Positions 26,475 through 45,506 are shown, counted from the first letter of the stretch. The stretch is DNA of 64,000 bases from Desulfurivibrionaceae bacterium (GCA_046537975.1 JBKHJR010000003.1:6677-70676); one strand, 5' to 3'. Numbers and translations are program-made. The notes: generated by a model from the sequence alone, not told the origin.

Positions 26475-27239
26475 ATGAAATATCATCAACCAAGCACCAT
26501 GGCCCGTCTTTTTCTGATCCTGACTGTCAGCCTGGCTATTTCCGGCTGTAGCGCCCCCGGACTGGATCTCTCCCTGAAAGACTCTTCTTTCACCGGGGAA
26601 AAAGCTCCGGCCCAAGAGGCCATGGCCGTTTCTATCGGGGTTGAAACTTTTATCGACCTGCGCCCCCAGATCCGGGGCAGTGATAATCAGAAGTGGCTCG
26701 GTTATATTCCGGGAGTTCTCTGGGTTGATATCGCCTCCGAGATTCCGGAAATCTACACCGCCTATTCACCCTATAACTCAAGACCGATGAAGGACACCAT
26801 CACCGAGGCTGTCACCGCCGGCCTCAGAGAAGCCGGTGCATTCGGTCAGGTCAGTTATCTGCCCCGGGATCCCTATAAGGAACCGGATTACCATCTGGAA
26901 GGAATTCTGCAGAAATCCTATGTAAAAGAAAGGGGCTACTACTACGGTTCCTCAATCTATGCCTGGCTGCTGAGGATACTGGGGCTGCCCTACGTTTCTT
27001 ATGAGGTGGTCCTGGAAACCGACCTGCGCCTGCGGGACATGGCTACCCGGGACATCATCTGGCAGGGAAAAATCAAAGGCCGGAGGACAGACAGGTATAA
27101 CAATGTCTATCAAATAACTCAGGGCAGAAACGGCAAACATCTCATCGCCTATAACTTCACCCTTATACTCCAGGACCAGCTGCCCGGCCTTATTAAGGAC
27201 ATGGTTAGGGCTCTTGAAAAGTCCAGAAATAAGAAGTAA
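26475..27239 (+). CDS. hypothetical lipoprotein
   Basis: 254 aa. Signal peptide plus lipobox (LAISGCS). No family recognised. Confidence 0.55.
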   Translation: MKYHQPSTMARLFLILTVSLAISGCSAPGLDLSLKDSSFTGEKAPAQEAMAVSIGVETFIDLRPQIRGSDNQKWLGYIPGVLWVDIASEIPEIYTAYSPYNSRPMKDTITEAVTAGLREAGAFGQVSYLPRDPYKEPDYHLEGILQKSYVKERGYYYGSSIYAWLLRILGLPYVSYEVVLETDLRLRDMATRDIIWQGKIKGRRTDRYNNVYQITQGRNGKHLIAYNFTLILQDQLPGLIKDMVRALEKSRNKK

Positions 27240-27248
27240 AAAAAGGAA

Positions 27249-27794
27249 ATGCACCCTGGATACAAATACCTGACACAGGATCAGCCTTCTCCTGAAATCA
27301 TGGCTATACTGGGCAAAATGCCAGACCGGTGGGGGCGTATGGATCAGATCAGCCGGCTTGTACTGGTGGAAGTGGGCCGGACCCTGAAAGAATACGGCCT
27401 GCTGGACAGTAATAGCAGATCCCTGCCCCCCTCCCAAACAGTGGGCCTGGTGGCAGGGACCCGTCGGGGATCCCTCACTACAGACCTTGCCTACTGCGCT
27501 TCCCTGCAAAAAGGGATAAATCATGCCAGCCCCGCCCTCTTCAGCTACACCCTGGCCAATATCTCCCTGGCCGAAGCCGCGGTCCATTACAGTCTGACCG
27601 GCCCGGTTTACGCCCTTTTCAGCAAACAGCCGTACGAAGACGCCCTGCAGGAAGCAAAGCGCTGGCTCAATACCGTTAATTATCCTTTGCAGATAGTTGC
27701 CGGTCAAGTGGATGTTTTCCCGGACATAACATCCCCGCTTTTATCTCATAAGATGGAAGAATACCAAACAGGGGCCAGATTTGTAGTGCTATAA
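27249..27794 (+). CDS. truncated ketosynthase-like protein (KS N-terminal half only; Gln at the active-site Cys position)
   Basis: 181 aa. Aligns by eye with ORF 34521-35273 and with the KS active-site region: GPVYALFSKQ versus GPAAVITNAC (KS 33283) and GPAYTLTNYC (34521). No His-His half. Confidence 0.6.
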   Translation: MHPGYKYLTQDQPSPEIMAILGKMPDRWGRMDQISRLVLVEVGRTLKEYGLLDSNSRSLPPSQTVGLVAGTRRGSLTTDLAYCASLQKGINHASPALFSYTLANISLAEAAVHYSLTGPVYALFSKQPYEDALQEAKRWLNTVNYPLQIVAGQVDVFPDITSPLLSHKMEEYQTGARFVVL

Positions 27795-27877
27795 ATTTTC
27801 AGCGGTTGCCCCCACCTTCCGGAAAGATATTGCATTTCTGATCTGAGGGTATAATATTTCCGGTATAATTCAGGATC

Positions 27878-27925
27878 CCGGAATTTCAGACTACCCGATC
27901 CCGACAAGTTGACTAAAAAAGGGTC
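27878..27925 (-). repeat. dispersed intergenic repeat family, truncated copy D
   Basis: CCGGAATTTCAGACTACCCGATCCCGACAAGTTGACTAAAAAAGGG matches the left end of copy C (CCGGAATAATTTCAGACCACCTGAGCCCGACAAGTTGACCAAACAAAAGGG). The rest has diverged. Confidence 0.6.
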
Positions 27926-27994
27926 AACGATCCTCTCATTTTGTGAAGAAATGAACTCCACTAACAAAGTCTAACATTCAAATTTTTAAAATTT

Positions 27995-29281
27995 ATGCCC
28001 CATATAACCATAATTTATCCGGAATGGACCAAGATACCGGAACAGACCGAATTCCATCTCCCCCCTCACGCTCCGGTATGTCTGGCCGCCGAGATCCCGG
28101 AAGACTATGAGGTCTCTTTCATCGATGAAAACATGGACCCTGTCGACCCGGACAACCGGACCGATCTGATCCTGCTCTCCATGATGCTAACCTGCCAGAT
28201 CCCCAGGGGGCTGGAAATTGCCGCTGCTTACCGGAATAGAGGGATCAAGGTGATCGCCGGGGGAATTGCCACCATGCTTCATGCCGAAGAGGTGGCTGAA
28301 CATGTGGACTCTGTCTTTCTGGGCGAGGTGGAAGGCGGCCGTCTGACCAGGGTTCTGGAACACTGGCGGGAAAACAACCTGAAGCCGCTCTATAACTACT
28401 TCCGGGATTTTCCGGAAACAGAGGAGATTGGTCCGGCCCGCCGCGACATTCTCAACTACGATCACTACGTCTACCGGGGGATGCCCATGGTTGATCTGGT
28501 CCATGCCTCCCGGGGCTGCAAGTTCAACTGTTTTCCCTGCGCCACCGCCTATCTGGGAGGGCGCACCTTCAGACCCCGGCCCATGGCCAGGGTTGCCGAA
28601 GAACTGGAAGGAATTGACAATAATCGCCTGTTCCTGGTGGACAACTCCCTGGCCCAGGATCGGGACTGGGTACTGGAACTGTTTTCCGTCCTGGAGTCAT
28701 TAGGGAAAAAATGGATCAGTCACCCGATTCTGGACGAAGAAAAAGTAATTGCCCGGGCAGCCAAGGCAGGATGCTGGTTTGTTTATCAGGCTGTTTTTGA
28801 CACCTCGGAGGTGATACGCAACCGGGTAAAAAGGCTCAAAGATCATGGTATAGGAGTGGAAGCCGCAGTTCTCCTGGGACCTGACAATCAGGACGCCGAC
28901 TACATAAAAAGACTTATCGATTTTCTCCTGGAAATTGATGTGGACATGGCGGAATTCTCCATACTGACTCCCTTCCCTCACACCCCGATGACAAAACAGT
29001 TCAAAAAGGAAGGCCGAATACTGCATAACGACTGGCGAAAATATACCACCAGTGAGGTCTGCTTTCAGCCTAAACACATGACTCCGGATGAACTTCAGGA
29101 GATGTATCATTATGCCTGGCAGGCCTTTTATCAGGAAAAAAGTCAATCCCTGCGCATGGCCCGGCTCTTCCATAAGGTGGTAAAAAAAGAAATAGCAGAC
29201 AACAGCTGGCGCTCTCCCATCGACCTTTCCCAGAAACGCCGGAAATGGCAAGAAACCAGGGGAACCGGCAATGGGGATTAA
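27995..29281 (+). CDS. B12-binding-domain radical SAM enzyme (class B) #1
   Basis: 428 aa. N-terminal Rossmann-like B12-type domain (DLILLSMM...KVIAGGI...FLGEVEG) and a CxxxCxxC motif (RGCKFNCFPC). Confidence 0.85.
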   Translation: MPHITIIYPEWTKIPEQTEFHLPPHAPVCLAAEIPEDYEVSFIDENMDPVDPDNRTDLILLSMMLTCQIPRGLEIAAAYRNRGIKVIAGGIATMLHAEEVAEHVDSVFLGEVEGGRLTRVLEHWRENNLKPLYNYFRDFPETEEIGPARRDILNYDHYVYRGMPMVDLVHASRGCKFNCFPCATAYLGGRTFRPRPMARVAEELEGIDNNRLFLVDNSLAQDRDWVLELFSVLESLGKKWISHPILDEEKVIARAAKAGCWFVYQAVFDTSEVIRNRVKRLKDHGIGVEAAVLLGPDNQDADYIKRLIDFLLEIDVDMAEFSILTPFPHTPMTKQFKKEGRILHNDWRKYTTSEVCFQPKHMTPDELQEMYHYAWQAFYQEKSQSLRMARLFHKVVKKEIADNSWRSPIDLSQKRRKWQETRGTGNGD

Positions 29282-30605
29282 CTGCCTGCTTATCTCAACA
29301 AACCAGGTGGAAGAACCCTACCCTGTCTATCCCCTGGGAGTTGCCCATCTGATGGGAGCTTTGGAGGCCGGTGGTCACAGCAGTAAACATTTTGACCTTC
29401 TGGCCGGGGGAGGCACCGAAGCCCTTGCCGGTTTTCTGCAGGACTCCTCTTTTGACCTCATCTGCCTCTCTATCCGTAATATAGACACCATGGACTGTAA
29501 CTGTCCCCACCATCTTCTGGGAGACACTCAAAAAACCATGGCGATTATCAGGAGGTCATCGGGTGCCCCGGTGGTGGTGGGAGGGCCTGCCTTCTCCATC
29601 ATGCCGGAAGAAATAATGGAATTAATCCAGGCAGACTACGGGGTGGTTGGCGAAGGGGAAAGCGCCCTTGTCCGGCTGGCCGACAGCATGGAGAGGGGGA
29701 CGGCCATTGCAAAAGGGATCATCCATCCCCGCCCCCGAAAATACCCCTGGAGACAGACCGCCTATCAAAAGGAAAACATGGCTTACTACCTCCGGAATGG
29801 CGGGATGCTGAACATTCAGACCAAGAGGGGCTGCCCCTACCGGTGCGCCTACTGTTCCTATCCCAATCTGGAAGGAAGGCATTACCGCTTCCGGGACCCG
29901 GAAGAGGTGGCGGACGAAGTACGAAGGTTGAACCTGGAGCTGGGGGCGGACTATATCTTTTTTTCCGACTCCACCTTTAATGACAATCAGGACCACTTTC
30001 TCCAAGTCGCTGAGGCCCTGATCAAAAATGACAACCATGTCCCCTGGTGCGCCTTTTTCCGGCCCCGGAACCTCTCAGCCGGGGCCTTGGCCCTGATGAA
30101 AAAAGCAGGGCTGGCCGCCATGGAGATGGGGACCGACGCCGCCTGCGACCGCACCCTGGAGGGCCTGGGTAAAGGCTTCACGTTCGGCGAGGTGATCGAT
30201 AATCACGAATTAACAGTGGCCCAGAACATCCCATGCGCCCATTTCATTATTTTCGGCGGCCCCGGGGAAGACCGGGACACCATTAAAGAAGGGCTGGCCA
30301 ATCTCGACCGCCTGCGCAACACCGTGGTCTTTGCCGGAGCCGGAATCAGAATACTTCCCGGTACTGAAATATATAAGAAAGCTCTGGCCGAGGGACTTGT
30401 TGGTCAAAATCAGTCCCTGCTGGATCCGCTCTTTTATTTCTCTCCCGGGATCAGCCGCGAGGAAGTGGATCAGGAACTGAAAAACGCCTGGCAAAAGAGA
30501 TTTGACCGGGTATACCCCTTTATGGGAATGCAGCAAAGGATCAACCACCTGCACAAAAAAGGCTATAAAGGCCCGGTCTGGGATAATCTGCTGGTAAGAA
30601 GATAA
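29271..30605 (+). CDS. B12-binding-domain radical SAM enzyme (class B) #2
   Basis: 444 aa. B12-type domain (DLICLSIRNIDT...VVVGGPAFS...VVGEGE) and CxxxCxxC (RGCPYRCAYC). Overlaps the previous gene by 11 nt. Confidence 0.85.
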   Translation: MGINCLLISTNQVEEPYPVYPLGVAHLMGALEAGGHSSKHFDLLAGGGTEALAGFLQDSSFDLICLSIRNIDTMDCNCPHHLLGDTQKTMAIIRRSSGAPVVVGGPAFSIMPEEIMELIQADYGVVGEGESALVRLADSMERGTAIAKGIIHPRPRKYPWRQTAYQKENMAYYLRNGGMLNIQTKRGCPYRCAYCSYPNLEGRHYRFRDPEEVADEVRRLNLELGADYIFFSDSTFNDNQDHFLQVAEALIKNDNHVPWCAFFRPRNLSAGALALMKKAGLAAMEMGTDAACDRTLEGLGKGFTFGEVIDNHELTVAQNIPCAHFIIFGGPGEDRDTIKEGLANLDRLRNTVVFAGAGIRILPGTEIYKKALAEGLVGQNQSLLDPLFYFSPGISREEVDQELKNAWQKRFDRVYPFMGMQQRINHLHKKGYKGPVWDNLLVRR

Positions 30606-30658
30606 TTCAAGATTTACTCCTGACCGGAAATTGTTTTTCCGGATCGGCAAGAACATCC

Positions 30659-31885
30659 ATGAAATATCAAAGAAACTGTGCTCCGCCATACGCTTCCCAC
30701 CGGACTTCACCGCTGAACCCCCTGATAGTTATCCCGGTATATAACCATGCCGCCACCCTGCCGGAAGTGGTCAACAGGTCCCTGGAGACCGGTTTCCCGG
30801 TTCTGGTGGTAGATGACGGCAGTACCGATCAGGGGACGGAACAACTCCGGAATCCGGGCTGCCGGATCTTAAAACTCGGCATCAACCGGGGCAAGGGGGC
30901 GGCCATCCTCGCCGGGGCCCGAAAGGCCTCGGAACAGGGTCATGATGCTGTAATTACCGTGGATGCCGACGGCCAGCATGACCCGGCTGAAACCTGCCTT
31001 CTGGTCCGGGAGGCGGAAAAGAACTGGCCTCTCATGGTCATCGGCTGCCGGGATATGTCCGGAGAAACAGTACCCCGCTCCAGCAGGTTCGGCCGGCTTT
31101 TCTCCAACTTCTGGGTGAGGCTGGAATGCGGCCGCGATCTTCCTGATACCCAGAGCGGCTTCCGCCTTTATCCTGTCCCGGAAATACTGGACTTAAATAT
31201 TGCCGGAAGCCGCTACGATTTCGAAGTAGAGGTTTTGACCAGGGCGGCCTGGGCCGGCCTTCCTATTAAATCCGTGCCGATTTCAGTCCATTACCCGGAG
31301 ATTGGAACCAGGATCTCCCATTTCAATCAGGTAAAGGATAATCTGCGCCTGACTTTCCTGCACAGCCGCCTGATCTGCCGGGCCCTGCTTCCCTGGCCCC
31401 ATAAAAAAATCATCGCTGAAAATCCGGCCGCCATTCAGGAACCGGAAAAACAGTCAATTTTTCATCCGGTAAAGCTCCTGAAAAGACTGTGCCTGGAACA
31501 CACCACCAGCCTTCAGCTGGCGGTGGCGGTCTGGGTGGGTATTTTTCTGGGGGCCCTGCCCCTGATAGCTGTTCATACAGTGGTAATTATCTATGTCTGC
31601 CACCGGCTCCACTTAAATAAACCGGCGGCGGTTGCTGCCAGCCAGATCTGCGCCCCGCCGCTACTGCCGGTAATATGTATCGAGACCGGCTATTTTTTGA
31701 GAAACGGGACCTGGCTGACCGAGGTTTCCTATGATATTCTTGTCCTGCAGATTCACCAGAGACTGTGGGAATGGCTGCTGGGCTCTCTTATCGTAGGACC
31801 GCTGCTGGGCCTGGTTGTCGCTTTTTCCGCCTATTTGGTTATCAGGTATCTACGCACTCTGGGCAAATCTTGTGTGAGAAAATGA
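30659..31885 (+). CDS. family-2 glycosyltransferase fused to a C-terminal membrane (DUF2062-like) domain
   Basis: 408 aa. GT2 motifs (VIPVYNH, VLVVDDGSTD, VDADGQHD), then 3-4 TM helices. Confidence 0.8.
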   Translation: MKYQRNCAPPYASHRTSPLNPLIVIPVYNHAATLPEVVNRSLETGFPVLVVDDGSTDQGTEQLRNPGCRILKLGINRGKGAAILAGARKASEQGHDAVITVDADGQHDPAETCLLVREAEKNWPLMVIGCRDMSGETVPRSSRFGRLFSNFWVRLECGRDLPDTQSGFRLYPVPEILDLNIAGSRYDFEVEVLTRAAWAGLPIKSVPISVHYPEIGTRISHFNQVKDNLRLTFLHSRLICRALLPWPHKKIIAENPAAIQEPEKQSIFHPVKLLKRLCLEHTTSLQLAVAVWVGIFLGALPLIAVHTVVIIYVCHRLHLNKPAAVAASQICAPPLLPVICIETGYFLRNGTWLTEVSYDILVLQIHQRLWEWLLGSLIVGPLLGLVVAFSAYLVIRYLRTLGKSCVRK

Positions 31886-32775
31886 TTGGTGGCATCCGAT
31901 TGGCCCAACGATTAGAGGCCCTGGGGCACTACATCTTTTATACGGTGATTATCCTGAGCGGCCAGCCCGGCGCCTATATTCTGCTGGCCCTGGTGATCTT
32001 TTCCTACACCCTGTTCAGCAGAAATATTCACAGAAAAACAGATTATTACCTGAGCCGCCGTTTTCCGGATAAATCCTGGGTCCGGCGCCGGCTGGACACT
32101 TTCAGGCTGGTCTACTCTTTTGGAAAGGTGCTGGTGGACAGGGCCTGGCTGGGTTTAAGGAAAAAAGCGGCCTTGGAAGGGAATTTCCCCGATCAATCCC
32201 TGCTTCTCCGGACCATAGAGGAAGGAAAGGGGGTTATCCTGCTTACCGCCCATGTAGGCAACTGGCAGACTGCTCTGGCCAATCTCACTGAACTTCCGGT
32301 GGCGGTTCACTCCCTCATGGAGTATGATCAGGAGGCTGTGGCCAAGCACTATTTCGATCTCAAGGACGGGCAGCGCCCCTTCCGGATCATCGCCAGTGAC
32401 GGTTTCCTGGGCGGCATGATCGAATCAACGGCAGCCCTGCAGCGCGGCGAAATCGTAACCATCATGGGAGACCGCTATGCCGGCGGGCCGGAGGTGGAAG
32501 TCGATTTTCTGGGCAGCCCGGTAAGGCTCCCGGCCACCCCTTATCAACTGGCGGCCTCGACCTCTGCGCCGATCGTGGTTCTCTTTGCCGCCAAAGAGGG
32601 GCAAAAAAAGTACTCCCTGAAAATCTGGGATATTTTCAGACCGGAGGCTGTAAACCGGCAAAACCGAGAGCGGGAGATCACCAAATGGGGACAGCGCTTT
32701 GCCTCTTCCCTGGAAAATTATCTGGCCCAACACCCTTACCAGTGGTACAATTTCTCCGATTTCTGGAAACAGTAA
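31882..32775 (+). CDS. LpxL/HtrB-type (lipid A biosynthesis-like) lysophospholipid acyltransferase
   Basis: ATG at 31882 overlaps the GT2 stop (ATGA). N-terminal TM helix and an HVGNWQ motif resembling the HxGNWE of LpxL-family acyltransferases. The ORF-track start at 31765 lies inside the GT2 gene. Confidence 0.75.
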   Translation: MIGGIRLAQRLEALGHYIFYTVIILSGQPGAYILLALVIFSYTLFSRNIHRKTDYYLSRRFPDKSWVRRRLDTFRLVYSFGKVLVDRAWLGLRKKAALEGNFPDQSLLLRTIEEGKGVILLTAHVGNWQTALANLTELPVAVHSLMEYDQEAVAKHYFDLKDGQRPFRIIASDGFLGGMIESTAALQRGEIVTIMGDRYAGGPEVEVDFLGSPVRLPATPYQLAASTSAPIVVLFAAKEGQKKYSLKIWDIFRPEAVNRQNREREITKWGQRFASSLENYLAQHPYQWYNFSDFWKQ

Positions 32776-32850
32776 GAAAAGGGCCATATCAAGACCTAAG
32801 ACCCTGCACCTGGAACTTAACCCCTCTCAATCAAGAGATCTAAGCTAATT

Positions 32851-33111
32851 ATGGATGACTTAAAAAGACAATTAAAAGGAATTATTGTAAAAGACCTCAA
32901 ATTAACCGGCATAACTCCTGAAGAGATAAAGGATGATGACTCTTTATTCGAAGAAGGACTCGGGCTCGACTCCCTTGATGCCGTGGAACTGGTGGTTCTT
33001 ATCCAGAAAAATTTCGGAGTGCAGATCGAGGACATGGATGAGGGGAATCAGGCCTTTGCCTCCATAAATTCCCTGGCCCGGTTCATTCAGGATAGACAGA
33101 AACAGGAATAA
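32851..33111 (+). CDS. acyl carrier protein #1
   Basis: 86 aa, phosphopantetheine site GLDSLDAVELV. Confidence 0.88.
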   Translation: MDDLKRQLKGIIVKDLKLTGITPEEIKDDDSLFEEGLGLDSLDAVELVVLIQKNFGVQIEDMDEGNQAFASINSLARFIQDRQKQE

Positions 33112-33282
33112 CTACAGCCGGTTTCTGCCTGATTAGCTGGTAAAATCTCTCTTCCGCGCACAGGGAACAGAAAGGACAGGGTTTTCCCTGAATGACAAAA
33201 CCAATTTTTGGCGCCCTATTCTTTGCAAGCAATTATAACTTATTACGAAAACAGCAAGACTTGTTGAAAGAAAATATTCTGA

Positions 33283-34524
33283 ATGAATAAAAAGCTGCAC
33301 AACAGAGTCGCCGTCTCCGGGACAGGCTGTATATCCGGGGCAGGGCGAGATGTCAGGGCCCACTGGGACAGTCTCTGTAACAGAAGGATAAATTGCGGCC
33401 CTGTTCCGGAATGGCTGTTTGCAACCGACCTTCCCTACCCGGTTTTTACGGCTCCGGCGGAATGCAGTCATCCTGAACAGGACCTTTATTTCCCTTATCT
33501 TCCCCCCCGCCCGGAAAACGAGATCAACCGGACAATACTTCTGGTGATTAACGCGGCTGTACAGGCCCTGCTGCAAACCGGTTTGTCTTTAGAGGAATTA
33601 AAGATGAAAAATGTAGGCATGGTGTTCGGCACCACCGTGGGCTGCACTTTTAATAACGAAGATTACTACTCCGCCTGGCGCCGGGGGGAAAAACCCGATC
33701 CGGAGCCGGTAAATCGCTATCTCGCCGGCAACCTGGCCTCTGCCCTCCAGTCTTTTTCCGGAATCAAGGGGCCGGCAGCGGTGATCACCAATGCCTGCGC
33801 CTCAGGAACTGATGCCATCGGCCTGGCCCGCAACTGGATCCTTTCCGGCCTTTGCGATCTGGTTATTGCCGGAGGGGGGGATGAACTCTCCAGAATTGCC
33901 TACAACGGTTTCACCAGCCTGCAGCTGACTTCAAAATCTCCCTGCCGCCCTTTTGACCGGGACCGGGACGGATTGAATCTGGGGGAAGGGGCGGCGGTCC
34001 TGATCCTGGAACCGGAAAGCAGGTGCCGTGAGCGGGGGAGTTCTACCCTGGGCTGGCTTCGGGGTTACGGTGCGGCAAATGATGCCTATCATCCCACTGC
34101 CCCCCATCCACAGGGCCGTGGCCTGAAAGCGTCTTTGGATATGGCCCTGGAGCAGATTGAGGGAGAGCGAAAAATCTCCTATCTAAACAGCCATGGAACA
34201 GGGACTCCGAGCAATGACCCGGCTGAGATGAAGGGCCTGCAATCTTCTTCTGCATACATAGAGAATGCGGCAATCGTTTCAAGCAAGGGTCTCACCGGTC
34301 ACACCCTGGGGGCGGCCGGGGCCTTGGAGGCAATTTTCACCCTGCTCTCCCTGAATGAAGGTTTTACCCCCGGTTCAGCCGGCTGCAGTCATCCCGACCC
34401 GGAACTTGCCCTATCTCCCCTGACCCGGGGAGAAAACCGGGAACTGGCCGGCAGCCTGGGACTGAGTACCTCGCTGGCCTTTGGCGGCGGCAATAGTGCC
34501 CTGATACTGGAGAGAGCCAAATGA
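33283..34524 (+). CDS. beta-ketoacyl-ACP synthase (KS I/II type) #1
   Basis: 413 aa. Active Cys ITNACASGTDA, His motifs SHGTGTPSND and GHTLGAAG. Confidence 0.9.
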   Translation: MNKKLHNRVAVSGTGCISGAGRDVRAHWDSLCNRRINCGPVPEWLFATDLPYPVFTAPAECSHPEQDLYFPYLPPRPENEINRTILLVINAAVQALLQTGLSLEELKMKNVGMVFGTTVGCTFNNEDYYSAWRRGEKPDPEPVNRYLAGNLASALQSFSGIKGPAAVITNACASGTDAIGLARNWILSGLCDLVIAGGGDELSRIAYNGFTSLQLTSKSPCRPFDRDRDGLNLGEGAAVLILEPESRCRERGSSTLGWLRGYGAANDAYHPTAPHPQGRGLKASLDMALEQIEGERKISYLNSHGTGTPSNDPAEMKGLQSSSAYIENAAIVSSKGLTGHTLGAAGALEAIFTLLSLNEGFTPGSAGCSHPDPELALSPLTRGENRELAGSLGLSTSLAFGGGNSALILERAK

Positions 34525-35273
34525 GCAGGATCCAGATATCCTCCATAGCTCTAAACGAAAATCAAAACCCGCAGACTTCATTTGCCCGGGAACTGAGGCG
34601 GGCTGACGGTTTCACAAGCCTGGCCGTTACAGTCGCCGAACAGGCTCTTGCCGGACTCAACCCCCATGATGACAGGGGGGAGACCGGGATATTTATCGGC
34701 ACAGCTTTCGGTCCCCTGGCTACCAATTTTGCCGCCCTTGATACCCTGCTCGATGACGGGGAAGGGCAGATGTCCCCTACCCTGTTTTCCCATTCGGTTT
34801 TCAATACCGCCGCCGGTTATATAAGCCGGCTCTTTAAACTCCGGGGACCGGCCTATACCCTGACCAACTACTGCTGGCCTTTCTTCCTGGCCCTGCGGGA
34901 AGGAAAGACCGCAGTGGAACACGGGATAATCAGGAGGGCGGTGGTACTGGAAGTGGAAATATACAGCCGGATCCTGACCGAGGCCGGACAACGGTCAAAG
35001 GGGGAAGACTTCCCCGTCCTTGTACCCGGCGCAGTCGCCTGGATACTCGAGGACGAAACTGACACCGGCAATGAGCCTGTAGGTCTTCTTGATTCCCTGG
35101 AATTCGAGGAATACGATGTCGCCCCGGAAGAATTCCTTTCCCCTCGCCCTCTGGAGCATTCATTTGCTGTCAGCCGCACCGCCCGGCAGTTAAAAAAACT
35201 CCCCGGCCAAAAAGAGTCATGGTGTGCTGAAGAGCTGTTCGGCAAGGCCCGGGTTGACCTGCAGTCTCCTTGA
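34521..35273 (+). CDS. truncated ketosynthase-like partner protein (chain-length-factor-like, N-terminal half only)
   Basis: 250 aa. ATGA overlap with the KS gene. GPAYTLTNYC aligns with the KS active site, but the His-His C-terminal half is missing. Confidence 0.7.
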   Translation: MSRIQISSIALNENQNPQTSFARELRRADGFTSLAVTVAEQALAGLNPHDDRGETGIFIGTAFGPLATNFAALDTLLDDGEGQMSPTLFSHSVFNTAAGYISRLFKLRGPAYTLTNYCWPFFLALREGKTAVEHGIIRRAVVLEVEIYSRILTEAGQRSKGEDFPVLVPGAVAWILEDETDTGNEPVGLLDSLEFEEYDVAPEEFLSPRPLEHSFAVSRTARQLKKLPGQKESWCAEELFGKARVDLQSP

Positions 35274-35536
35274 CCGGAGACAACCGGAAGTGGAAAGTCG
35301 GAAGTAGAAAATTGCAATGCCGTCATTATTATGGTATTTCTGCAAGATTAGATTTTCTTATACCTTGAACCGGGAATACCCTGTGATCCCGGGATATCAA
35401 TCGTCCCTGAAGGTGTATCATGGTAAAGTTCGTGACGAAAACAGTCTATTATGAAAACAAAATAAGGAATCTTCAGGATCGAACAGATGAACTCTCTGAT
35501 TGAATGCCACCAATCAAATAATAATACGGTGAAGAC

Positions 35537-36772
35537 GTGCCGACAAAAAGGGTAGTTATTACCGGACGGGGAGCGGTATCTCCTTATGGTCTGGGAGTTA
35601 AGCTCCTTACAGAAAAGGTCTGGCAGAACTGTTCAGGGATACGGCTGATGCCGGAATGGCAGGAGATAAAAGGCCTTGAATCCCATCTTGCCGCTCCGGT
35701 TCCCGCCATTGATAGCTCCCAACATCTGCCCCGCTCCCTGCGTCGTACCATGGGTGATATGGCTCTGTACGCTGTGCTGGCCTCCCGGGAAGCTGCGGGG
35801 GAAGCCGGGCTTGAGGAAGAAACCCTGACAGGCGGCAGCACCGGAGTTGCCATCGGTTCCACCACCGGTTCTCCCAGTGTCTTAGAAGAATTTTATCAAA
35901 ACTACATCCCGGGAAAAAGTATCGAAGAGGTCAGATCCGGGATGTTTTTCAAAATAATGGGACACAGCTGTGCAGCCAATGTATGCCTGGCTCTGGGGAT
36001 CAAAGGGGAACAATGGTCACCTGCGAGTGCCTGCACCTCTGCAGCCCAGGCTATCGGTATGGGTTATCTGCTGATCAAAAGCGGCCGCCAGGAAATAATG
36101 CTCTGCGGCGGTGCTGATGAGGCCCATCCCACCGTCACCATGATCTTCGATGTAGTCAAGGCAGCCTCCAGATATGCCGGGGACCCCATTCTGGCTCCCA
36201 GACCTTTTGACAGCCGGAGGGACGGCGTGGTCTGCGGCGGCGGCAGCGGTATCCTGGTTCTGGAAAGCCTGGAATCAGCCCAAAAACGGGGGGCTGACAT
36301 TCTCGGCGAGATAAAAGGCTTCGGCCTGGTCAATGACAGTCAGCACATTGCCAATCCCAGCAGGGAGTCCATAGCAAGGGCTATGAACGGAGCAATGACT
36401 GAGGCCGGCATCAATTACCGGGAAATAGATTATGTCAATGCCCATGCCACCGGAACCGTACTGGGCGATATCGCTGAAGGGACAGCCATCCGGGAAAATC
36501 TCAAAGAAACCACCCCGGCAAGTTCATTTAAAGGCCATCTGGGCCATACCCTGGGAGCAGCCGGTTCCCTTGAGGCTATAATTCTTCTGGAGATGCTGGC
36601 CCGGCAGGAAATCGTCCCCACTCTTCACCTCGAAGAGGCCGACCCTGAACTAAAAGGCATGGATCTGGTCCGGGAAATCCGGCCCCAGCGGATGAATTGT
36701 GTCCTTAAAAACAATTTTGCCCTTGGCGGAGTGAACACCGCTCTGCTCTTGAAACAGTGGACAGGTAGATAA
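35537..36772 (+). CDS. beta-ketoacyl-ACP synthase II-like (FabF-like) #2
   Basis: 411 aa with a GTG start. Active Cys SPASACTSAAQA, AHATGTVLGD and GHLGHTLGAAG. Confidence 0.9.
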   Translation: MPTKRVVITGRGAVSPYGLGVKLLTEKVWQNCSGIRLMPEWQEIKGLESHLAAPVPAIDSSQHLPRSLRRTMGDMALYAVLASREAAGEAGLEEETLTGGSTGVAIGSTTGSPSVLEEFYQNYIPGKSIEEVRSGMFFKIMGHSCAANVCLALGIKGEQWSPASACTSAAQAIGMGYLLIKSGRQEIMLCGGADEAHPTVTMIFDVVKAASRYAGDPILAPRPFDSRRDGVVCGGGSGILVLESLESAQKRGADILGEIKGFGLVNDSQHIANPSRESIARAMNGAMTEAGINYREIDYVNAHATGTVLGDIAEGTAIRENLKETTPASSFKGHLGHTLGAAGSLEAIILLEMLARQEIVPTLHLEEADPELKGMDLVREIRPQRMNCVLKNNFALGGVNTALLLKQWTGR

Positions 36773-37056
36773 TGACGGAAGAAGAGATCAAAAAAAGGGT
36801 TAGAAAAGTCCTTGCCCATGAATTTGAACTTGAAGAGGCGGAGCTTAAACCCGAGGTCAGCCTGTATGAAGATCTGGAACTGGACAGTCTTGACGCCGTG
36901 GATATGGTAGTGGCCCTGGAAAAAGCCTTTGCCATGAAAATGACCGATCAGGAAGCCCTGCGTGAAGTGGCAACTATTCAGGATCTTTTTGATTTCTTGA
37001 TTGAGATGGCCCATGAAACCAACAATGAAATTAGGGAAGACTCTGGTACGGGATAA
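36772..37056 (+). CDS. acyl carrier protein #2
   Basis: 94 aa, LELDSLDAVDMVV. The start overlaps the KS stop by 1 nt (TAATG). Confidence 0.88.
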   Translation: MTEEEIKKRVRKVLAHEFELEEAELKPEVSLYEDLELDSLDAVDMVVALEKAFAMKMTDQEALREVATIQDLFDFLIEMAHETNNEIREDSGTG

Positions 37057-37816
37057 CGATATCCTACAATATATTAAAGACGGTTTTAGAAAACTCTTTT
37101 TCAATATTTACTTCTGGCCTCTCTTTGTCCTGATTACCCTGATCAGCTTTTTCTGCATTCCCCTGATAACAGCCGCCAACTTTTTCTTTCATTTTTGGGC
37201 GCAGGACAAAGCCTTTCGGAACGGGATCAGGATCTACGGCCAGGTAATAATAAAAATTGCCTCCGTCATGGCCCCGGTAGAGGTCGAAGACAGATCAGGG
37301 GGATTATCCCTGCCCGCTATATTTGTTGCTAATCACAACTCCTCTGCCGATCCTTTTCTTTTCGGGGCCCTGCCTTTTGAAAACAGTTTCGTCACCAGCT
37401 GGCCCTTCAGGATTCCGTTTTACCGCTGGGCGATGAAACAGGCCGGTTATATTGATGCCAATAAAGGCTGGGAAAACCTGGTGCGCGAGGGGTGCAGACT
37501 CTTTAACCGGGGAAGTTCCCTGATTATCTGGCCGGAAGGACATCGCAGTCCGGAAGCGGAATTGCAGAGATTCCGCAGCGGAGCTTTCAGACTGGCGCTG
37601 GAAACTGGCCGTCCCATTGTCCCGGTCTGTATCCTGGGTTCGGGCGATTTGCTTCCTCCGGGCAGAAGACTGCTGAATCCGGTGCCGGTAAAACTTATCA
37701 TTTATCCGGAAATTCCCCCGGAGAGATATGCCAACGCTTCCCAAGCCCACAAGATGTTGGGTGAAGAAGTCAGAGATATTATTCAAAAAGAAATAAGGGG
37801 TGCCGGTGAACTTTGA
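37001..37816 (+). CDS. PlsC-family 1-acyl-sn-glycerol-3-phosphate-type acyltransferase
   Basis: 271 aa. N-terminal TM helices, an HX4D motif (NHNSSADP) and a PEGHRS motif. The true start may be ATG at 37013 or 37025. Every option overlaps the ACP 3' end. Confidence 0.8.
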   Translation: MRWPMKPTMKLGKTLVRDNDILQYIKDGFRKLFFNIYFWPLFVLITLISFFCIPLITAANFFFHFWAQDKAFRNGIRIYGQVIIKIASVMAPVEVEDRSGGLSLPAIFVANHNSSADPFLFGALPFENSFVTSWPFRIPFYRWAMKQAGYIDANKGWENLVREGCRLFNRGSSLIIWPEGHRSPEAELQRFRSGAFRLALETGRPIVPVCILGSGDLLPPGRRLLNPVPVKLIIYPEIPPERYANASQAHKMLGEEVRDIIQKEIRGAGEL

Positions 37817-37866
37817 CAATATCTTCGGATTGGTAATTTCCAATTATTTTAAACTGCACCGACTCT

Positions 37867-39162
37867 ATGGACTACTCACTCAATAAGGCCCTGAAATGGC
37901 GGCAAAGCGATCCCGATGAGATCAGGCACCATCAGGACCAGCTCTTACAAGATCATTTCCGGCAGGCCTCCGGGAGTACTTACTATCAGGAATTGTTCAG
38001 GAAGCTGACTCTGGATCCGGCTGAGATCACCCTGTCTGATCTGGATCAGGTCCCCCTTACTTCCAGACAGGACCTGGAGGAAAACCCCGGAGCTTTTACC
38101 GCGGTTTCAGAAGAGGCACAGGTGGATATGGCCCTGACCTCCGGGACCACCGGCAGCCCCGTCCCCGTGCCCTATACCGCCTCGGACCTGACCAGACTCG
38201 CCTTCAACGAAGAACTCTGTTTCCGGGGAGCGGGTCTCAAGGCAAGTGACCGGATTCTGCTCTGTGTCACCCTGGACAAGAATTTTATCGCCGGCCTGGC
38301 CTATTACAGCGGCGCAGTCCGCCTGGGGGCCTCGGTCATCCGCAGCGGCCCGGGACAGCCGGCCAGGCAATGGGAGATCATAAGACAACTCCGCCCTAAC
38401 GTAATAGTAGGAGTTCCATCCTTTCTGCTGAATCTGGCCCAATGGGGAGGAAAGGAAGGCCTGAAACCCGAGCAGGCCGGCATAAAATCCCTGATCACCA
38501 TCGGAGAACCCATCAGACAGCCTGATTACAGCTTTACCCCCCTGGGCCGGCAGCTTTCCGATATCTGGCAGGCCCGGCTTTTTTCATCCTACGGAGCAAC
38601 GGAACTGGAAACCGCCTGCTGTGAATGCCCGGCCGGCAAAGGCGGCCATATTCATCCCGAATTGATGATCGCCGAAATAATAGATGACCAAGGCAATAAA
38701 CTGCCGGCAGGTGAACCGGGAGAACTGGTTATAACCACCCTGGGAGTTGAAGGTTTTCCCTTGATCAGATTCAAAACAGGTGATATAGCAACCATCGAGG
38801 ATGCTCCCTGTGAGTGCGGCTGGAGAACATCCAGGCTGGGGCCTCTTCAGGGACGTCTGGCCCAGCGCCTGAAATACAAGGGAACCACCCTGTACCCGGA
38901 AATGATTTACTACCTTCTTCAGGATATCGAAGGAATAAAGGCCTACTACCTGGAAGTCCGGTCCTCTTATGATCTCTCCGATGACATCACCGTGACAGTA
39001 GGAGGAGATGATCCCTCCCTGTCGGCGGACAGAATTGCAGATCTTCTCCAGGCCGGTCTCCGGGTCCGGCCGCCGGTGAAAATAAAGGAAACCGAAGAGG
39101 TTCTGGCCATGATGAATCAGGGAAGCGGCAGCAAGACAAAACGTTTTTTTGATTACAGGTGA
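37867..39162 (+). CDS. PaaK / coenzyme F390 synthetase-like adenylate-forming enzyme
   Basis: 431 aa. AMP-binding motif TSGTTGSPVPVPYT and YGATE. Confidence 0.8.
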   Translation: MDYSLNKALKWRQSDPDEIRHHQDQLLQDHFRQASGSTYYQELFRKLTLDPAEITLSDLDQVPLTSRQDLEENPGAFTAVSEEAQVDMALTSGTTGSPVPVPYTASDLTRLAFNEELCFRGAGLKASDRILLCVTLDKNFIAGLAYYSGAVRLGASVIRSGPGQPARQWEIIRQLRPNVIVGVPSFLLNLAQWGGKEGLKPEQAGIKSLITIGEPIRQPDYSFTPLGRQLSDIWQARLFSSYGATELETACCECPAGKGGHIHPELMIAEIIDDQGNKLPAGEPGELVITTLGVEGFPLIRFKTGDIATIEDAPCECGWRTSRLGPLQGRLAQRLKYKGTTLYPEMIYYLLQDIEGIKAYYLEVRSSYDLSDDITVTVGGDDPSLSADRIADLLQAGLRVRPPVKIKETEEVLAMMNQGSGSKTKRFFDYR

Positions 39163-39268
39163 CATACCCACCTGGTTTCAGGTGTTATAGATAAAGTGAT
39201 CGGCACTTATCCATTCAAGCCAATTAAGTTGTGTCCGGTTTTGCCGGGCGAATCCATAAGGTTTTAAG

Positions 39269-40324
39269 ATGAAATGTTTTGGTGAACACTGGGGACTGGA
39301 ATTCAGTCCGGAAGAAATTGCCGCAGCCAGGGCGGAAAACGGTCTGTTATCCATGGAACTGGAGCTCTCCAGGGCCTGCAACCTGCGCTGCATTTACTGC
39401 TACGCCTCTTCCGGACTCCCCCTGGACCAGGAACTGAGCCTGGAAGAGATATACAATGTCGTGGACCAGGCGGTTGACCTCGGGGCCCAAAAAATCATTA
39501 TCCTGGGAGGCGGTGAACCCCTGCTTTACAGCGACCTGTTTGCGGTAATTGATTACCTTAAAAGCAAAGAGGTGACTGTCGACCTCTTCACCAACGGCAC
39601 ACTGATAACCGAAAAGACCGCGACCATGCTTTTTGAGCGCGGGGTCTCGGTGGTGGTCAAGTTGAACAGCCTGAATCCGGAGATCCAGGACCACCTGGCC
39701 GGTAAACCGGGAACCTCTGAAGAAATCATGACCGGTCTGAATCTCCTCCGGGAGGCCGGTTATCCTGATGCCCAACATCCCCTGGGCATTGAGACCGTAA
39801 TCTGCCGGCAGAACTACGACGAACTGCCGGACCTCTGGGCCTGGGCCCGCCGCCGGGGGATTATCCCCTATATGGAGATGATGACCATGCAGGGCAGAGC
39901 CACTAAGCACCCTGAACTGGAAGTCGAATCCGGAAAAGTCAGAGAGATGTTTGAACGCTTGTCCGAACTGGACCGGAAGGAATTTGACCACCACTGGTCC
40001 CCCCACCCCCCTCTGGCTGGTTCCCAGTGCGCCCGCCACGAGTACTCCTGCACAGTTACTGCCAACGGAGAAATATATCCCTGTCCGGGTGTAAGTGTGG
40101 CCGCGGGAAATATAAGGCAGTCCAGGCTGGCCGACATCCTGAAAAACGGAACACCTTTTATCCACTTAAGAGACATACGCCGAAATATCAAAGGGCGTTG
40201 CGCCAGATGCAGTTTAAGCCGGGTCTGTTACGGCTGCCGGGGCCATGCCTATCAGGTTACCGGAGATTACCTGGCGGAAGACCCCTTATGCTGGTTTTCC
40301 GAAGAAGAGTTGACCGGAAAATGA
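39269..40324 (+). CDS. radical SAM enzyme with C-terminal SPASM domain
   Basis: 351 aa. CxxxCxxC (RACNLRCIYC). SPASM pattern CTVTANGEIYPC (CX5GX4C), then CARCSLSRVCYGC and a final Cys (PLCW). Confidence 0.85.
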   Translation: MKCFGEHWGLEFSPEEIAAARAENGLLSMELELSRACNLRCIYCYASSGLPLDQELSLEEIYNVVDQAVDLGAQKIIILGGGEPLLYSDLFAVIDYLKSKEVTVDLFTNGTLITEKTATMLFERGVSVVVKLNSLNPEIQDHLAGKPGTSEEIMTGLNLLREAGYPDAQHPLGIETVICRQNYDELPDLWAWARRRGIIPYMEMMTMQGRATKHPELEVESGKVREMFERLSELDRKEFDHHWSPHPPLAGSQCARHEYSCTVTANGEIYPCPGVSVAAGNIRQSRLADILKNGTPFIHLRDIRRNIKGRCARCSLSRVCYGCRGHAYQVTGDYLAEDPLCWFSEEELTGK

Positions 40325-41616
40325 AGGTGCTGCTGATAAATCCGCCCAACTGCGGCCGGAGTATACCGGAAGAAAAATACGGCATCGACTCCCTGAAACA
40401 GATCTTCCGGGGCGAACCCCTGGCCCTGGAAGAACTGGCCGGCAACCTTCCGGCTCACGAGGTCAAAATTGTTGATCTCAAGGCGGACTCCCGGGACCTG
40501 TCGGAGGTTCTGGACTCTTTCCCCCCGGATATAGCCGGAATTACCGGGGTGACCTGCGAAGCCAACACCATGCTTAAGCTGGCCGGACAGGTGAAGGAGA
40601 CCTGCGGTTCAGTCGTGGTGGTGGGAGGAATCCACGCCAGCTGCGACCCCTGTTTTTTTAACCGGCCCCCGGTGGACTACATCGTCACCGGCCTGGGTAA
40701 AAAGACCTTTGCCGAACTGGCTGCCGCCTTAAAAGAGGGAAGGACAACCACCAATATCCCCGGAGTCGCCGCAGTTACCCCGGGCCGGGAACCGTACTTC
40801 CCGCCCCACCCTTGCAGCCCGGCGGACCTAAGGGATGACCGGCCCCCGGCCTATGACCTGGTCAAGGATTACCGGCAACACTACTATCTGCCCAAACTGG
40901 CTATGAATATGGGTTTCGTGAGCACGGCCTTCGGCTGTCCCTTCAACTGCTCCTTCTGCTGCCTGGGAGCCCAGACCGGGGGCAGATACCTGACCAGATC
41001 CGGGGAGGCGGTTGTCCGGGACATAGAGCTATTGGAGGATATTCCGGTCATAAGGCTCCTGGATGCCAACACCTTTGCCGATCCGGAGCACAGCCTCAAC
41101 CTGTGCACAGCCCTGCAGGAAGCAGGAATAAAAAGACAGTATCTGGCAGACGCCCGCTCCGATTCGGTGGTCAACAACCCGGATCTTTTCCGGCAATGGC
41201 ATGAAGCAGGCCTGCGGGCGGTAATCATCGGCTTTGAGGAAATCGACGATCTGCGCCTTAAGGCCATGAACAAGGCCAATAAGACGGCGGTCAACAACCA
41301 GGCTATTGACATCCTCCACCATACAGGGCTTACTATTGTCGGCGACTTTATTATTTCCCCGGAATACCGGGATGAAGATTTTGACCGTCTTCAAGAATAT
41401 ATAGAAACCAAAAAAATCGACCTGCCCATGGTGACGGTCATGACCCCCCTGCCCGGCACCAGACTTTATCAGGAAGAAAAAGACAGGATCAGCAACCACG
41501 ATCTGGACTACTACACCCTGACCAATGCCGTGCTCCCCACCGGGATGCCGGAAAAAAGGTTCTACCGGAGGTATGCCGATCTGCTCAGGGAAACCCATGC
41601 CGCAGCCCGGGTGTAA
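40321..41616 (+). CDS. B12-binding-domain radical SAM enzyme (class B) #3
   Basis: ATG at 40321 (MKVLLINPP) overlaps the SPASM gene stop (ATGA). B12-type domain (DIAGITGVT...VVVVGGIH) and CxxxCxxC (FGCPFNCSFC). The ORF-track start at 40027 lies inside the previous gene. Confidence 0.85.
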   Translation: MKVLLINPPNCGRSIPEEKYGIDSLKQIFRGEPLALEELAGNLPAHEVKIVDLKADSRDLSEVLDSFPPDIAGITGVTCEANTMLKLAGQVKETCGSVVVVGGIHASCDPCFFNRPPVDYIVTGLGKKTFAELAAALKEGRTTTNIPGVAAVTPGREPYFPPHPCSPADLRDDRPPAYDLVKDYRQHYYLPKLAMNMGFVSTAFGCPFNCSFCCLGAQTGGRYLTRSGEAVVRDIELLEDIPVIRLLDANTFADPEHSLNLCTALQEAGIKRQYLADARSDSVVNNPDLFRQWHEAGLRAVIIGFEEIDDLRLKAMNKANKTAVNNQAIDILHHTGLTIVGDFIISPEYRDEDFDRLQEYIETKKIDLPMVTVMTPLPGTRLYQEEKDRISNHDLDYYTLTNAVLPTGMPEKRFYRRYADLLRETHAAARV

Positions 41617-41644
41617 AGACAAACAAGAACTATTCAGCACCACG

Positions 41645-42799
41645 ATGAACAATGTCTATATAACAGATATCGCCGCCTTCCTGCCCAATAAGCCGGTAAA
41701 TAATGACGACATCGAAAAACTCCTGGGCTTAGGCAACTCCCTGCCCTCCCGGACCAAAAAGATAATCCTTAAAAATAACGGCATAGAAACCAGGCATTAT
41801 GCCATTGATCCGGAAACCAGGGAACTAACCCACACCAACGCCCAACTCGCCGCGGAAGCGGTAGCCAAGCTCAAGCCCTATGCCAATTTCAGCCCGGAGG
41901 ATATCTCCTGCCTGTGCTGCGGCTCTTCCACTCCGGATCAGTTCATGCCCGGTCATGCCTCCATGGTCCATGGCGAATTAAAGGGTTCAAGCTGTGAAAT
42001 CGTCAGCACCGCAGGTGTCTGCCTCTCCGGAATAACCGCCCTCAAGTACGCCTATCTGAACGTGGGAGCCGGACTCACTCCCAATGCCGTGGCCACAGGC
42101 TCGGAACTGGCATCTTCTTATCTCCGGGCCGAATTCCTGGAAAAGGGACCGGACCGGGAAAAAATAGACAAACTGGAGCAAAAGCCGGCCTTGAGTTTTG
42201 AGGCCGACTTCCTGCGCTGGATGCTCTCGGACGGAGCAGGAGCCGCTTTCCTTGGTACAGAACCCCGACCGGACGGGAAAAGCCTCAGAATAGACTGGAT
42301 CGACATTGTCTCCCATGCCCACCGCTATGAACCCTGTATGTATGCCGGAGCCAACAAAGACAAAAACGGCGAGCTCAGAGGCTGGCGGGAGTGCGACTCC
42401 CTCCCCGAAGCCCTGAACCGGGAATTCTTCCCCATAAAACAGGATGCCAGGCTCTTAAACCGCCGGATTCTGACCGCAGTGGTGGATGAAAGCCTGCCCG
42501 GAATAATCAAGGCCCGCAACCTGGAGCCGGACAATATATCCTGGTTCCTGCCCCACTACTCCTCGGAATACTTCCGCATTCCGGTCTTTAATCACCTGAC
42601 GGAAATAGGTTTCACCATTCCCTTGGAGCGCTGGTTTACCAATCTGGCCACCAAAGGCAATACCGGCTCCGCCTCCATCTACATAATCATGGAAGAGCTC
42701 ATGAAAACAGGCCGCCTCAGCCGGGGAGAAACCCTCCTCTGTTTCATTCCGGAAAGCGGCAGGTTCTCCACAGCCTATATGCACCTTACGGTGGTTTAA
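41645..42799 (+). CDS. KAS III-like (FabH/DarB-like) condensing enzyme
   Basis: 384 aa from MNNVYITD. Cys in STAGVCLSG, His in LPHYSS, Asn in GNTGSASI (C-H-N triad). Longer than canonical FabH. Confidence 0.8.
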   Translation: MNNVYITDIAAFLPNKPVNNDDIEKLLGLGNSLPSRTKKIILKNNGIETRHYAIDPETRELTHTNAQLAAEAVAKLKPYANFSPEDISCLCCGSSTPDQFMPGHASMVHGELKGSSCEIVSTAGVCLSGITALKYAYLNVGAGLTPNAVATGSELASSYLRAEFLEKGPDREKIDKLEQKPALSFEADFLRWMLSDGAGAAFLGTEPRPDGKSLRIDWIDIVSHAHRYEPCMYAGANKDKNGELRGWRECDSLPEALNREFFPIKQDARLLNRRILTAVVDESLPGIIKARNLEPDNISWFLPHYSSEYFRIPVFNHLTEIGFTIPLERWFTNLATKGNTGSASIYIIMEELMKTGRLSRGETLLCFIPESGRFSTAYMHLTVV

Positions 42800-43178
42800 G
42801 GCCCTGTAAAAGCCGGATAATGGCAGGGCTGATATCACAAAAAAGGCCAGATGTATTCTAAACATCAATAATTATCGCCGGAAAGACCCTGATATTAAAA
42901 AGTTATCCTGAACAAGGGGAATGGGAAAAGAATTATATTTTTTATAGTCAAAAATTTGTGCTATACTGGAAGGTATATTTTTTGCACCGTTTTCAAATGA
43001 AGATGGGGAAGTAATCTCTTCAGGATGAACTTTGTTCGCCTCTTTCTTATACCAAGACAGACTCTATCAGATCTTTTTTGGGTGCAAAATTTCGAATCAG
43101 GTCGGGATCTGATGTAAACTTATTTGAGGACCGTAAAGAAAAATAATTTCATTTCCAGGCAAAAGTGAGGCTGGATTC

Positions 43179-44558: not shown

Positions 44559-44589
44559 TCTACTCTACTCAAGAAAACATTTACCCAAA

Positions 44590-45183
44590 ATGCGTCTTTC
44601 CCTCAGAGAAATATTTCTTCTGGCCTGTATTGTTTTTTCCACTTTCGGGTGTGCGCAGCAACATCTCTTCTGTGATATTCCGGAACATTATCTGGCAATG
44701 CCGGCTGATCAGATCAAGGAGGAAATTTCCCTTCTGGAAAAAAGAATTGCCGCAGGTCCGGGCAGTAGCACCCAGGAGAAGTTACTCCCTGAAGATTATT
44801 ACAACCTGGCCCTTCTCTACTCTCATCATAACAACGCCTCCCCTGATTACAGCAAGGCACTCAAGGCCCTTGACCGCTACACCCGGAATATACCGCCGCA
44901 CAGGAAAGAGTATGACGTTATCTATCTGGAGAATCTCCTGAAGGATCTGGAAGGCTTAGTCCAGATCAAAAAAGGATACGTCCAGCTTCAAGGGGAACAC
45001 ATCGAACTTGAAGAAAATTATGCCGAGCTGCGCCGGCTGTTGGATGAACTGATTCAAGAGTATGATAACCTGATGCAGGAGCATGGCAACCTGATTCAGG
45101 AGCACCGGGACACCAAAGAAACCCTCGAGCAGCTCAAGAGGCTCGATATATGGCTGGAACAGAAAAAGCGGGAAATCAAGTAG
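44590..45183 (+). CDS. hypothetical lipoprotein with C-terminal coiled-coil repeats
   Basis: 197 aa. Lipobox FSTFGC. C-terminal repeats LIQEYDNLMQEHGNLIQEH. Confidence 0.55.
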   Translation: MRLSLREIFLLACIVFSTFGCAQQHLFCDIPEHYLAMPADQIKEEISLLEKRIAAGPGSSTQEKLLPEDYYNLALLYSHHNNASPDYSKALKALDRYTRNIPPHRKEYDVIYLENLLKDLEGLVQIKKGYVQLQGEHIELEENYAELRRLLDELIQEYDNLMQEHGNLIQEHRDTKETLEQLKRLDIWLEQKKREIK

Positions 45184-45228
45184 TAGACGTGGTCATCCCG
45201 CAATCAGAGATGGTATCTCCTAAATTGA

Positions 45229-45472: not shown

Positions 45473-45506
45473 CATGGACTTATTCTTTCAGGGCAATCGA
45501 TCTTTA

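Follow-up and report, generated by a model that had tools for sequence, protein, structure and literature searches.

The 64,000-nucleotide stretch analysed here (hereafter the window; GCA_046537975.1, JBKHJR010000003.1:6677-70676), from a Desulfurivibrionaceae bacterium, carries a cluster of condensing enzymes, acyl carrier proteins (ACPs) and radical SAM enzymes that encodes no ketoreductase (KR), dehydratase (DH) or thioesterase (TE). This lack is not a design feature of the cluster type. It is accounted for by a deletion in this lineage, since the genome has lost a six-gene operon that its relatives keep. On sequence evidence, the cluster is best described as a truncated copy of a known type, similar to the aryl-polyene and flexirubin-dialkylresorcinol clusters and possessing a TIGR04072 'ladderane-type' radical SAM enzyme, with no new chemistry. 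The cluster type was already known and only the deletion is newly recognised. The puzzle of condensing enzymes without a reductive loop thus resolves into a lineage-specific 5-kb deletion.

The cluster occupies positions 26475-52985, as delimited by open reading frame (ORF) listing and by scanning every sizeable ORF in that interval with Pfam and NCBIfam models. It is divided into a plus-strand arm (26475-42799) and a minus-strand arm (52985-45840). Three full ketosynthases (KSs; 33283, 35537 and 51900), two half-size KS homologues, one DarB-type beta-ketoacyl-ACP synthase III (KAS III) and three ACPs were identified, and alignment showed the Cys-His-His triad to be intact in all three full KSs. 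The count of full KSs, KAS III and ACPs given in the initial annotation was thereby borne out. Positions 32851-37056 hold only the row ACP1-KS1-half-KS-KS2-ACP2, and the observation concerns the whole cluster.

No adh_short/KR, FabA/FabZ, MaoC, 4HBT, Acyl_transf_1 or thioesterase match was found in any sizeable ORF of the cluster. When the whole assembly was searched in six frames with PF07977, TIGR01830, PF00106, PF00698, PF13279, PF03061 and PF01575, the contig carrying the cluster (C80, 74.7 kb), which extends past the window on both sides, gave zero matches. Both searches agree with the earlier statement that 27249-52985 holds no KR, DH, enoyl reductase (ER), malonyl-CoA:ACP transacylase (MAT) or TE. 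Examination of the ORFs at 26475, 49262 and 49681, which the initial annotation had left unassigned, revealed no hidden KR or DH but a lipoprotein, a DarG family protein and a second lipoprotein, respectively. The missing MAT and ER are normal, since neither belongs to the cluster type in any locus examined.

Among the TIGR04072 carriers of the family, the closest is a genome of the same genus (G086, 73% identity). Its contig C12 is collinear with the plus arm of the window, from chemotaxis genes (CheB, CheR) through DarB. On its contig C9 the genes of the minus arm, in the order ACP3-ABC-ABC-DarH-DarG-lipoC-rSAM-KS3, are followed by a divergent operon, KR-X149-LolA-MMPL-X193-DH, and then by gap-pgk-tpi-secG. 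In the window, 339 bp separate KS3 (to 52985) from gap (from 53324), and the conserved right flank of the lost operon, gap-pgk-tpi-secG (53324-56989, plus strand, assigned by domain scan), is collinear with G086. In DNA alignment, window positions 45834-53106 matched C9 5537-12974 at 77-82% identity and positions 53319-57126 matched C9 18229-22328 at 78-81% identity. Between these blocks, 212 unrelated bp in the window (53107-53318) stand in place of 5,254 bp in G086 (12975-18228) that have no counterpart. A six-gene operon of about 5.25 kb (KR-DH-LolA-MMPL-X193-DH) is thus replaced by 212 bp.

The deletion junction (52986-53323) still has one half of the divergent promoter between KS3 and KR, up to about 53106. 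These first ~120 bp align with the KS3-KR intergenic region of G086, including a conserved AT-rich repeat, and are followed by the 212 bp without counterpart. Searches of the 339-bp junction with blastn-short and tblastx recovered no remnant of the six genes, the sole match being to the conserved half of the promoter. The junction has no second copy in the genome, and no gene was gained there. Protein queries from relatives found no orthologue of MMPL, LolA, X149 or X193 anywhere in the assembly. With a KR query the best match in the assembly, at 42-45% identity, was the housekeeping FabG, but in G086, G085 and G063 that query detected orthologues of 59-73% identity; two FabZ-like genes are present in G086 and in other relatives. 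It is therefore very probable that the KR-DH-LolA-MMPL-X-DH operon was deleted in the source genome, and most of the residual doubt concerns an assembly or strain artefact.

Other genomes of the order generally keep the reductive genes. We searched 23 other TIGR04072-bearing genomes with FabG (TIGR01830) and FabA models. Nineteen carry a FabG-like KR (241-272 bits, TIGR01830) on the contig of the radical SAM gene, at a distance of 3-11 kb, and for 16 of the 19 that contig also gave a weak FabA/FabZ match. The other four genomes are fragmented, and at least three of these (G010 being uncertain) have a KR of that score class on a different contig; in two, a weak FabA/FabZ match shared the contig of the KR. 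Altogether, a dedicated FabG-like KR is present in at least 22 of the 23 genomes, and the source genome (G000) alone lacks a KR of the 241-272-bit class.

Gene maps were drawn for 14 loci. A conserved block, KR-X149-LolA-MMPL-X193-DH(-TE), lies between the half-KS and KS3 in G028, G015, G013, G057, G084, G063 and G065, and it follows the orthologue of the half-size KS at 34521. Its KR matches the FabG and FlxB models, its LolA is LolA2-like and its transporter is of the MMPL/HAE3 type. X149 is weakly FabZ-like, an ORF of 127-141 amino acids is a FabZ-like dehydratase with an HFPG motif region, and a 4HBT thioesterase is often the last gene. Since all the outgroups have the block next to KS3, comparison of the loci indicates that it is ancestral and was lost in G000. 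Syntenic KR and DH genes in other genomes, which the initial annotation had named as the finding that would speak against its proposals, do occur beside the cluster in relatives, and their absence here is a deletion.

By analogy with aryl-polyene systems, the intact form of the cluster would load a starter on a dedicated ACP by means of the adenylating ligase, and the KS/half-KS pair would extend it with malonyl units supplied by the housekeeping FabD. Each beta-keto group would be processed by the dedicated FabG-like KR and the pair of FabZ-like dehydratases. LpxL-, PlsC- and GT2-type transferases would then attach the chain to a lipid anchor, and export would proceed via LolA and the MMPL transporter. 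The DarB/DarG/DarH/ABC module could contribute a resorcinol-type part, and the radical SAM enzymes could tailor the product. Hand-over of the chain through LpxL-, PlsC- and BtrH(DarH)-type transferases was correctly anticipated in the initial annotation and has been proposed for aryl-polyene lipids (PMC8253772).

The explanation we favour overall, with moderate confidence, is that this is a known cluster truncated by deletion of the operon and left with a crippled polyene arm. That arm probably no longer works, as judged from the aryl-polyene analogy, and the failure would affect both processing and export, because LolA and MMPL went in the same event. A recent loss might explain why the remaining genes are intact; alternatively, some parts may still serve, among them the DarB arm, which uses ordinary fatty-acid intermediates.

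Several points weigh against this explanation. The 24 remaining cluster genes are all full length and intact. In a relative-rate test of lineage-specific amino-acid changes with five outgroups, the cluster genes had 1301 changes in G000 and 1538 in G086, compared with 190 and 305 in gap/pgk/tpi/secG, and the slight shift of the cluster genes towards G000 was unconvincing once repeated use of the same sites was allowed for. As no clear relaxed constraint is seen, the remnant may still be under selection and functional. A strain variant with the block, or an unbinned contig carrying it, may exist; the assembly consists of 97 contigs and is 95.6% complete. Lastly, the analogy with the E. coli and Acinetobacter aryl-polyene enzymes may not be transferable to this cluster type.

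The main alternative is that the cluster is fully functional and borrows housekeeping enzymes for its own ACP-bound chains, which we consider unlikely, though it deserves more credit than any other rival. One true FabG (contig C77), one FabZ (C88) and one FabD (C79) exist elsewhere in G000, as does a FabZ-like/FabI-like pair, and the intact genes without clear rate acceleration are compatible with continued function. Borrowing from the housekeeping type II fatty acid synthase (FAS II), as suggested in the initial annotation, is indeed normal for the MAT, no MAT gene having been seen in any locus examined. For KR and DH it may occur but is disfavoured by work on aryl polyenes. In vitro, FabG of A. 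baumannii was unable to take the place of ApeQ (PMC8041823). When single core or transport genes of the E. coli aryl-polyene cluster were deleted, pigment was lost in most cases in spite of the presence of FabG and FabZ, and some remained only in the apeA, F, D, J and K mutants (PMC8253772). In addition, every other TIGR04072-bearing genome with a callable assembly keeps a dedicated KR (G010 being uncertain), and housekeeping enzymes would thus not be expected to suffice. The deletion also took the LolA/MMPL export pair, for which the assembly holds no substitute. It is similarly doubtful that the 24-gene remnant is a working pathway, either through the housekeeping FabG and FabZ or by making another lipid, tailored by the radical SAM enzymes and retained in the inner membrane. 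If it were, it would be a natural minimal version of a 'ladderane-like' cluster.

Genes elsewhere in the assembly were also considered as displaced parts of the cluster. Contig C45 (L011:10518-17914) has an operon-like row of aconitase-type large and small subunits, a FabZ-like hot-dog protein, a FabI-like short-chain dehydrogenase/reductase (SDR) and a KAS III, continuing with an alpha/beta hydrolase and a radical SAM-DUF3641-methyltransferase fusion. Its FabZ-like and SDR genes were rejected as a displaced DH and KR, given that the SDR is FabI-like, the DH of the relatives is only 28% identical to the hot-dog protein and the context is unrelated. The row is a second, unusual locus of fatty-acid-like character that has no relation to the cluster. 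The second-best SDR, on contig C31 (229 bits), was rejected as the missing KR as it lies among glycogen and pentose-phosphate genes. A KS and a FAD-oxidoreductase at the start of contig C1 were rejected since they are only 24-32% identical to cluster proteins.

An assembly or binning artefact, in which the organism carries the KR-DH operon and the contig is a minor deletion variant or a mis-join, is improbable. The metagenome-type, fragmented and slightly incomplete assembly leaves room for it. However, contig C80 is continuous across the junction, which is flanked by 59 kb and 14 kb of sequence, both sides align collinearly with G086, and the binned contigs contain none of the six genes. A mis-join is disfavoured because the junction sequence is unique and offers no repeat that could cause one.

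Least probable is the proposal, made in the initial annotation, that the chain is deliberately left unreduced (poly-beta-keto, as in a type II polyketide synthase, PKS) or that radical SAM enzymes replace the KR/DH chemistry. The absence of KR and DH would fit it, as would the presence of five radical SAM enzymes and of a half-KS that lacks the Cys and recalls a chain-length factor. In relatives, however, the same radical SAM enzymes and half-KSs are accompanied by a dedicated KR and two FabZ-like dehydratases, often with a 4HBT thioesterase as well. No cyclase/aromatase domain was found in any scanned cluster ORF, and KR and DH were lost through a simple deletion that brought in no new gene at the junction. 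The full-length KS-alpha/KS-beta pair and cyclase/aromatase of aromatic type II PKS are not seen here, the KS partners being half-size (181 and 250 amino acids). Since all five radical SAM enzymes of the window co-occur with the KR-DH block in G028 and G015, their distribution indicates that they are additions to the reductive loop and not a replacement for it.

The cluster should therefore not be taken as evidence for radical SAM enzymes replacing KR/DH chemistry. In this widespread cluster type of anaerobes, a dedicated KR and dehydratases are the rule, beside radical SAM enzymes. The G000/G086 pair is a natural with/without comparison that could be used in lipidomics or heterologous-expression work on such clusters.

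The plus arm begins with a lipoprotein gene (lipoA, 26475-27239), which has a lipobox signal peptide and no Pfam or NCBIfam match. Its orthologue in G086 is 70% identical, and its predicted model resembles the CsgG/LptE/PelC-type periplasmic lipoprotein fold (E about 1e-6). It is followed by a half-size KS homologue without the nucleophile Cys (hKS_Q, 27249-27794), which aligns with the N-terminal part of PF00109 only, and by rSAM1 (27995-29281), the partner of the TIGR04072 enzyme, with weak B12-binding, Radical_SAM and DUF4070 matches and 71-81% identity to its counterparts in relatives. The TIGR04072 'lipid biosynthesis B12-binding/radical SAM protein' itself (29271-30605) scored 578.9 bits against a cut-off of 360. 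A GT2-DUF2062 glycosyltransferase-like protein (30659-31885), recognised in the Pfam/NCBIfam scan, and an LpxL-type lipid acyltransferase (PF03279, 31765-32775) come next. ACP1 (32851-33111) has a PP-binding domain and matches NF006617 at 72 bits (cut-off 70). KS1 (33283-34524), assigned as a full Cys-His-His ketosynthase by domain scans and alignment, overlaps by 4 bp with its half-size partner hKS_C (34521-35273), which keeps the Cys and lacks the C-terminal half; hKS_C is likely a chain-length-factor-like subunit. The PRK09116-like full ketosynthase KS2 (35537-36772; domain scans and alignment) and ACP2 (36772-37056; domain scans) complete this row.

Downstream on the plus strand are a PlsC-type acyltransferase (PF01553, 37001-37816) and a FlxY/PaaK-like adenylating ligase assigned to starter activation (37867-39162), which matches NF053551 at 430.7 bits, under the cut-off of 520. 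A radical SAM/SPASM enzyme (39269-40324) and an HpnR-like B12 radical SAM enzyme (40027-41616, a 529-amino-acid ORF as listed) were identified by domain scans. The HpnR-like ORF overlaps the SPASM gene by about 300 bp. Its true start is probably near 40300, downstream of 40027, since the orthologues have 431-442 amino acids. The arm ends with the DarB/StlD-family ketosynthase (KAS III, 41525-42799), which scored 554.4 bits with NF005293 (cut-off 450) and 457.9 bits with a narrower DarB model, under its cut-off of 550.

On the minus strand, ACP3 (45840-46097) has a PP-binding match of 23.7 bits (cut-off 20.8) and an orthologue in G086 that is 88% identical. It is accompanied by an ABC-2 permease and ATPase (46177-48373, domain scan), by DarH, a BtrH-related acyltransferase (48246-49265; NF053550, 479.6 bits, cut-off 300), and by the DarG family protein (49262-49678; 148.5 bits, cut-off 70). 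The latter is all-helical and helix-turn-helix (HTH)-like, with a predicted core that is confidently all-helical and Cro/Xre-like and has no hot-dog fold. The second lipoprotein (lipoC, 49681-50271), also periplasmic, has a lipobox and BamE-like neighbours. A BchE/HpnJ-like B12 radical SAM enzyme (50356-51843; domain scans) and KS3 (51900-52985), an AmcF-like ketosynthase with the triad intact (domain scans and alignment), close the arm.

Three features of the surroundings were also noted. Within the retained half of the KS3/KR divergent promoter, positions 53044-53089 contain three exact copies of CAATTAAT in 46 bp. Seven copies occur window-wide against 2.9 expected, and the surrounding 30 bp are 90% identical in G086; the copies may form a putative operator, for instance for the HTH-like DarG. 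Further to the right, a tRNA-Leu(GAG) gene (57041-57125) is followed by a phage-type tyrosine integrase (57457-58692). A genomic island probably begins here, about 4 kb from the deletion junction, since collinearity with G086 ends at 57126. Between the arms (42800-45840), a HAMP-GGDEF protein and a coiled-coil lipoprotein are encoded, and the arms of G000 are convergent on one contig. In G086 the arms lie on different contigs (C12 and C9) and other genes follow DarB, and from this layout the arms are seen to be rearranged within the genus.

The cluster was classified from its matches to the TIGR04072, DarB, DarG, DarH, FlxY-like and aryl-polyene-type ACP and KS models. About 1,900 database relatives of the TIGR04072 protein were found at E <= 1e-30, the closest being P0005 (93% identity) and P0007 (68%), and the named ones are from Thermodesulfobacteriota (Desulfurivibrionaceae, Desulfotalea, Desulforhopalus, Desulfobulbaceae). 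The gene is present in 30 of 61 sampled genomes of the same order and in 10 of 40 family-level genomes, G000 being included in both counts. The type is thus widespread in this order of sulfate-reducer relatives. Its first description was from Desulfotalea psychrophila and Kuenenia (PMC2649909). In genome-mining surveys, clusters of this sort from Desulfobacterota and other non-anammox phyla carry the label 'ladderane' (PMC9902471). Polyunsaturated hydrocarbons have been reported in D. psychrophila (Rattray et al. 2009, PMC2649909).

Like the 'ladderane-like' FAS II clusters of D. psychrophila and Kuenenia stuttgartiensis, the window, from a sulfate-reducer relative, has the TIGR04072 enzyme with its partner and multiple divergent FabF paralogues and ACPs around it, in collinear order with G086, G028, G015, G013 and G057. 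Unlike them, it has no dedicated KR, dehydratases or LolA/MMPL. Several loci of relatives also possess a CsgG-like lipoprotein, a CrtI/CrtD-like FAD oxidoreductase and a fourth KS. In many clusters of the order, the oxidoreductase and fourth KS are located beside KS2 (L031:14638-16155 in G028; L038 in G084), and they are found neither in G000 nor in the G086 loci. These CrtI/CrtD-like genes correspond to those that Rattray et al. 2009 described as 'phytoene desaturase-like', and their absence together with that of the fourth KS distinguishes the window from other clusters of the same order.

With the aryl polyene clusters (ApeA-R) of E. coli CFT073, Xenorhabdus doucetiae and Acinetobacter baumannii (PMC8253772, PMC8041823), the window shares a KS with a short KS-like partner, apparently represented by the overlapping KS1/half-KS pair with a second half-KS at 27249. 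It also shares two ACPs, an adenylating ligase, transferases of the lysophospholipid acyltransferase (LPLAT) and glycosyltransferase (GT) types and a lipoprotein. The relatives extend this likeness with an ApeQ-like KR, two ApeI/P-like hot-dog DHs, an ApeL-like LolA, an ApeM-like RND/MMPL transporter and an ApeK-like 4HBT TE. The deletion in the source genome removed the counterparts of ApeQ, I, P, L and M, so that the dedicated FabG-like KR (ApeQ/FlxB), the hot-dog DH pair (ApeI/ApeP) and the LolA and RND/MMPL export are missing. The window differs further in lacking the ApeB methyltransferase and in having five additional radical SAM enzymes and the DarB/G/H/ABC module.

That module links the cluster to the flexirubin and arcuflavin aryl-polyene-dialkylresorcinol hybrids (PMC3992019, PMC3949708). 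No ORF was named DarA in the Pfam and NCBIfam scans, though a DarA model is possibly absent from both libraries. The DarB-family KS, DarG and DarH of the window exceed their cut-offs, the FlxY-like ligase is shared, and the KR and LolA of the relatives match the FlxB and LolA2 models. The FlxY, FlxB and LolA2 scores, however, are under the equivalog cut-offs, and in contrast to these hybrids the cluster belongs to an anaerobic host and includes radical SAM enzymes.

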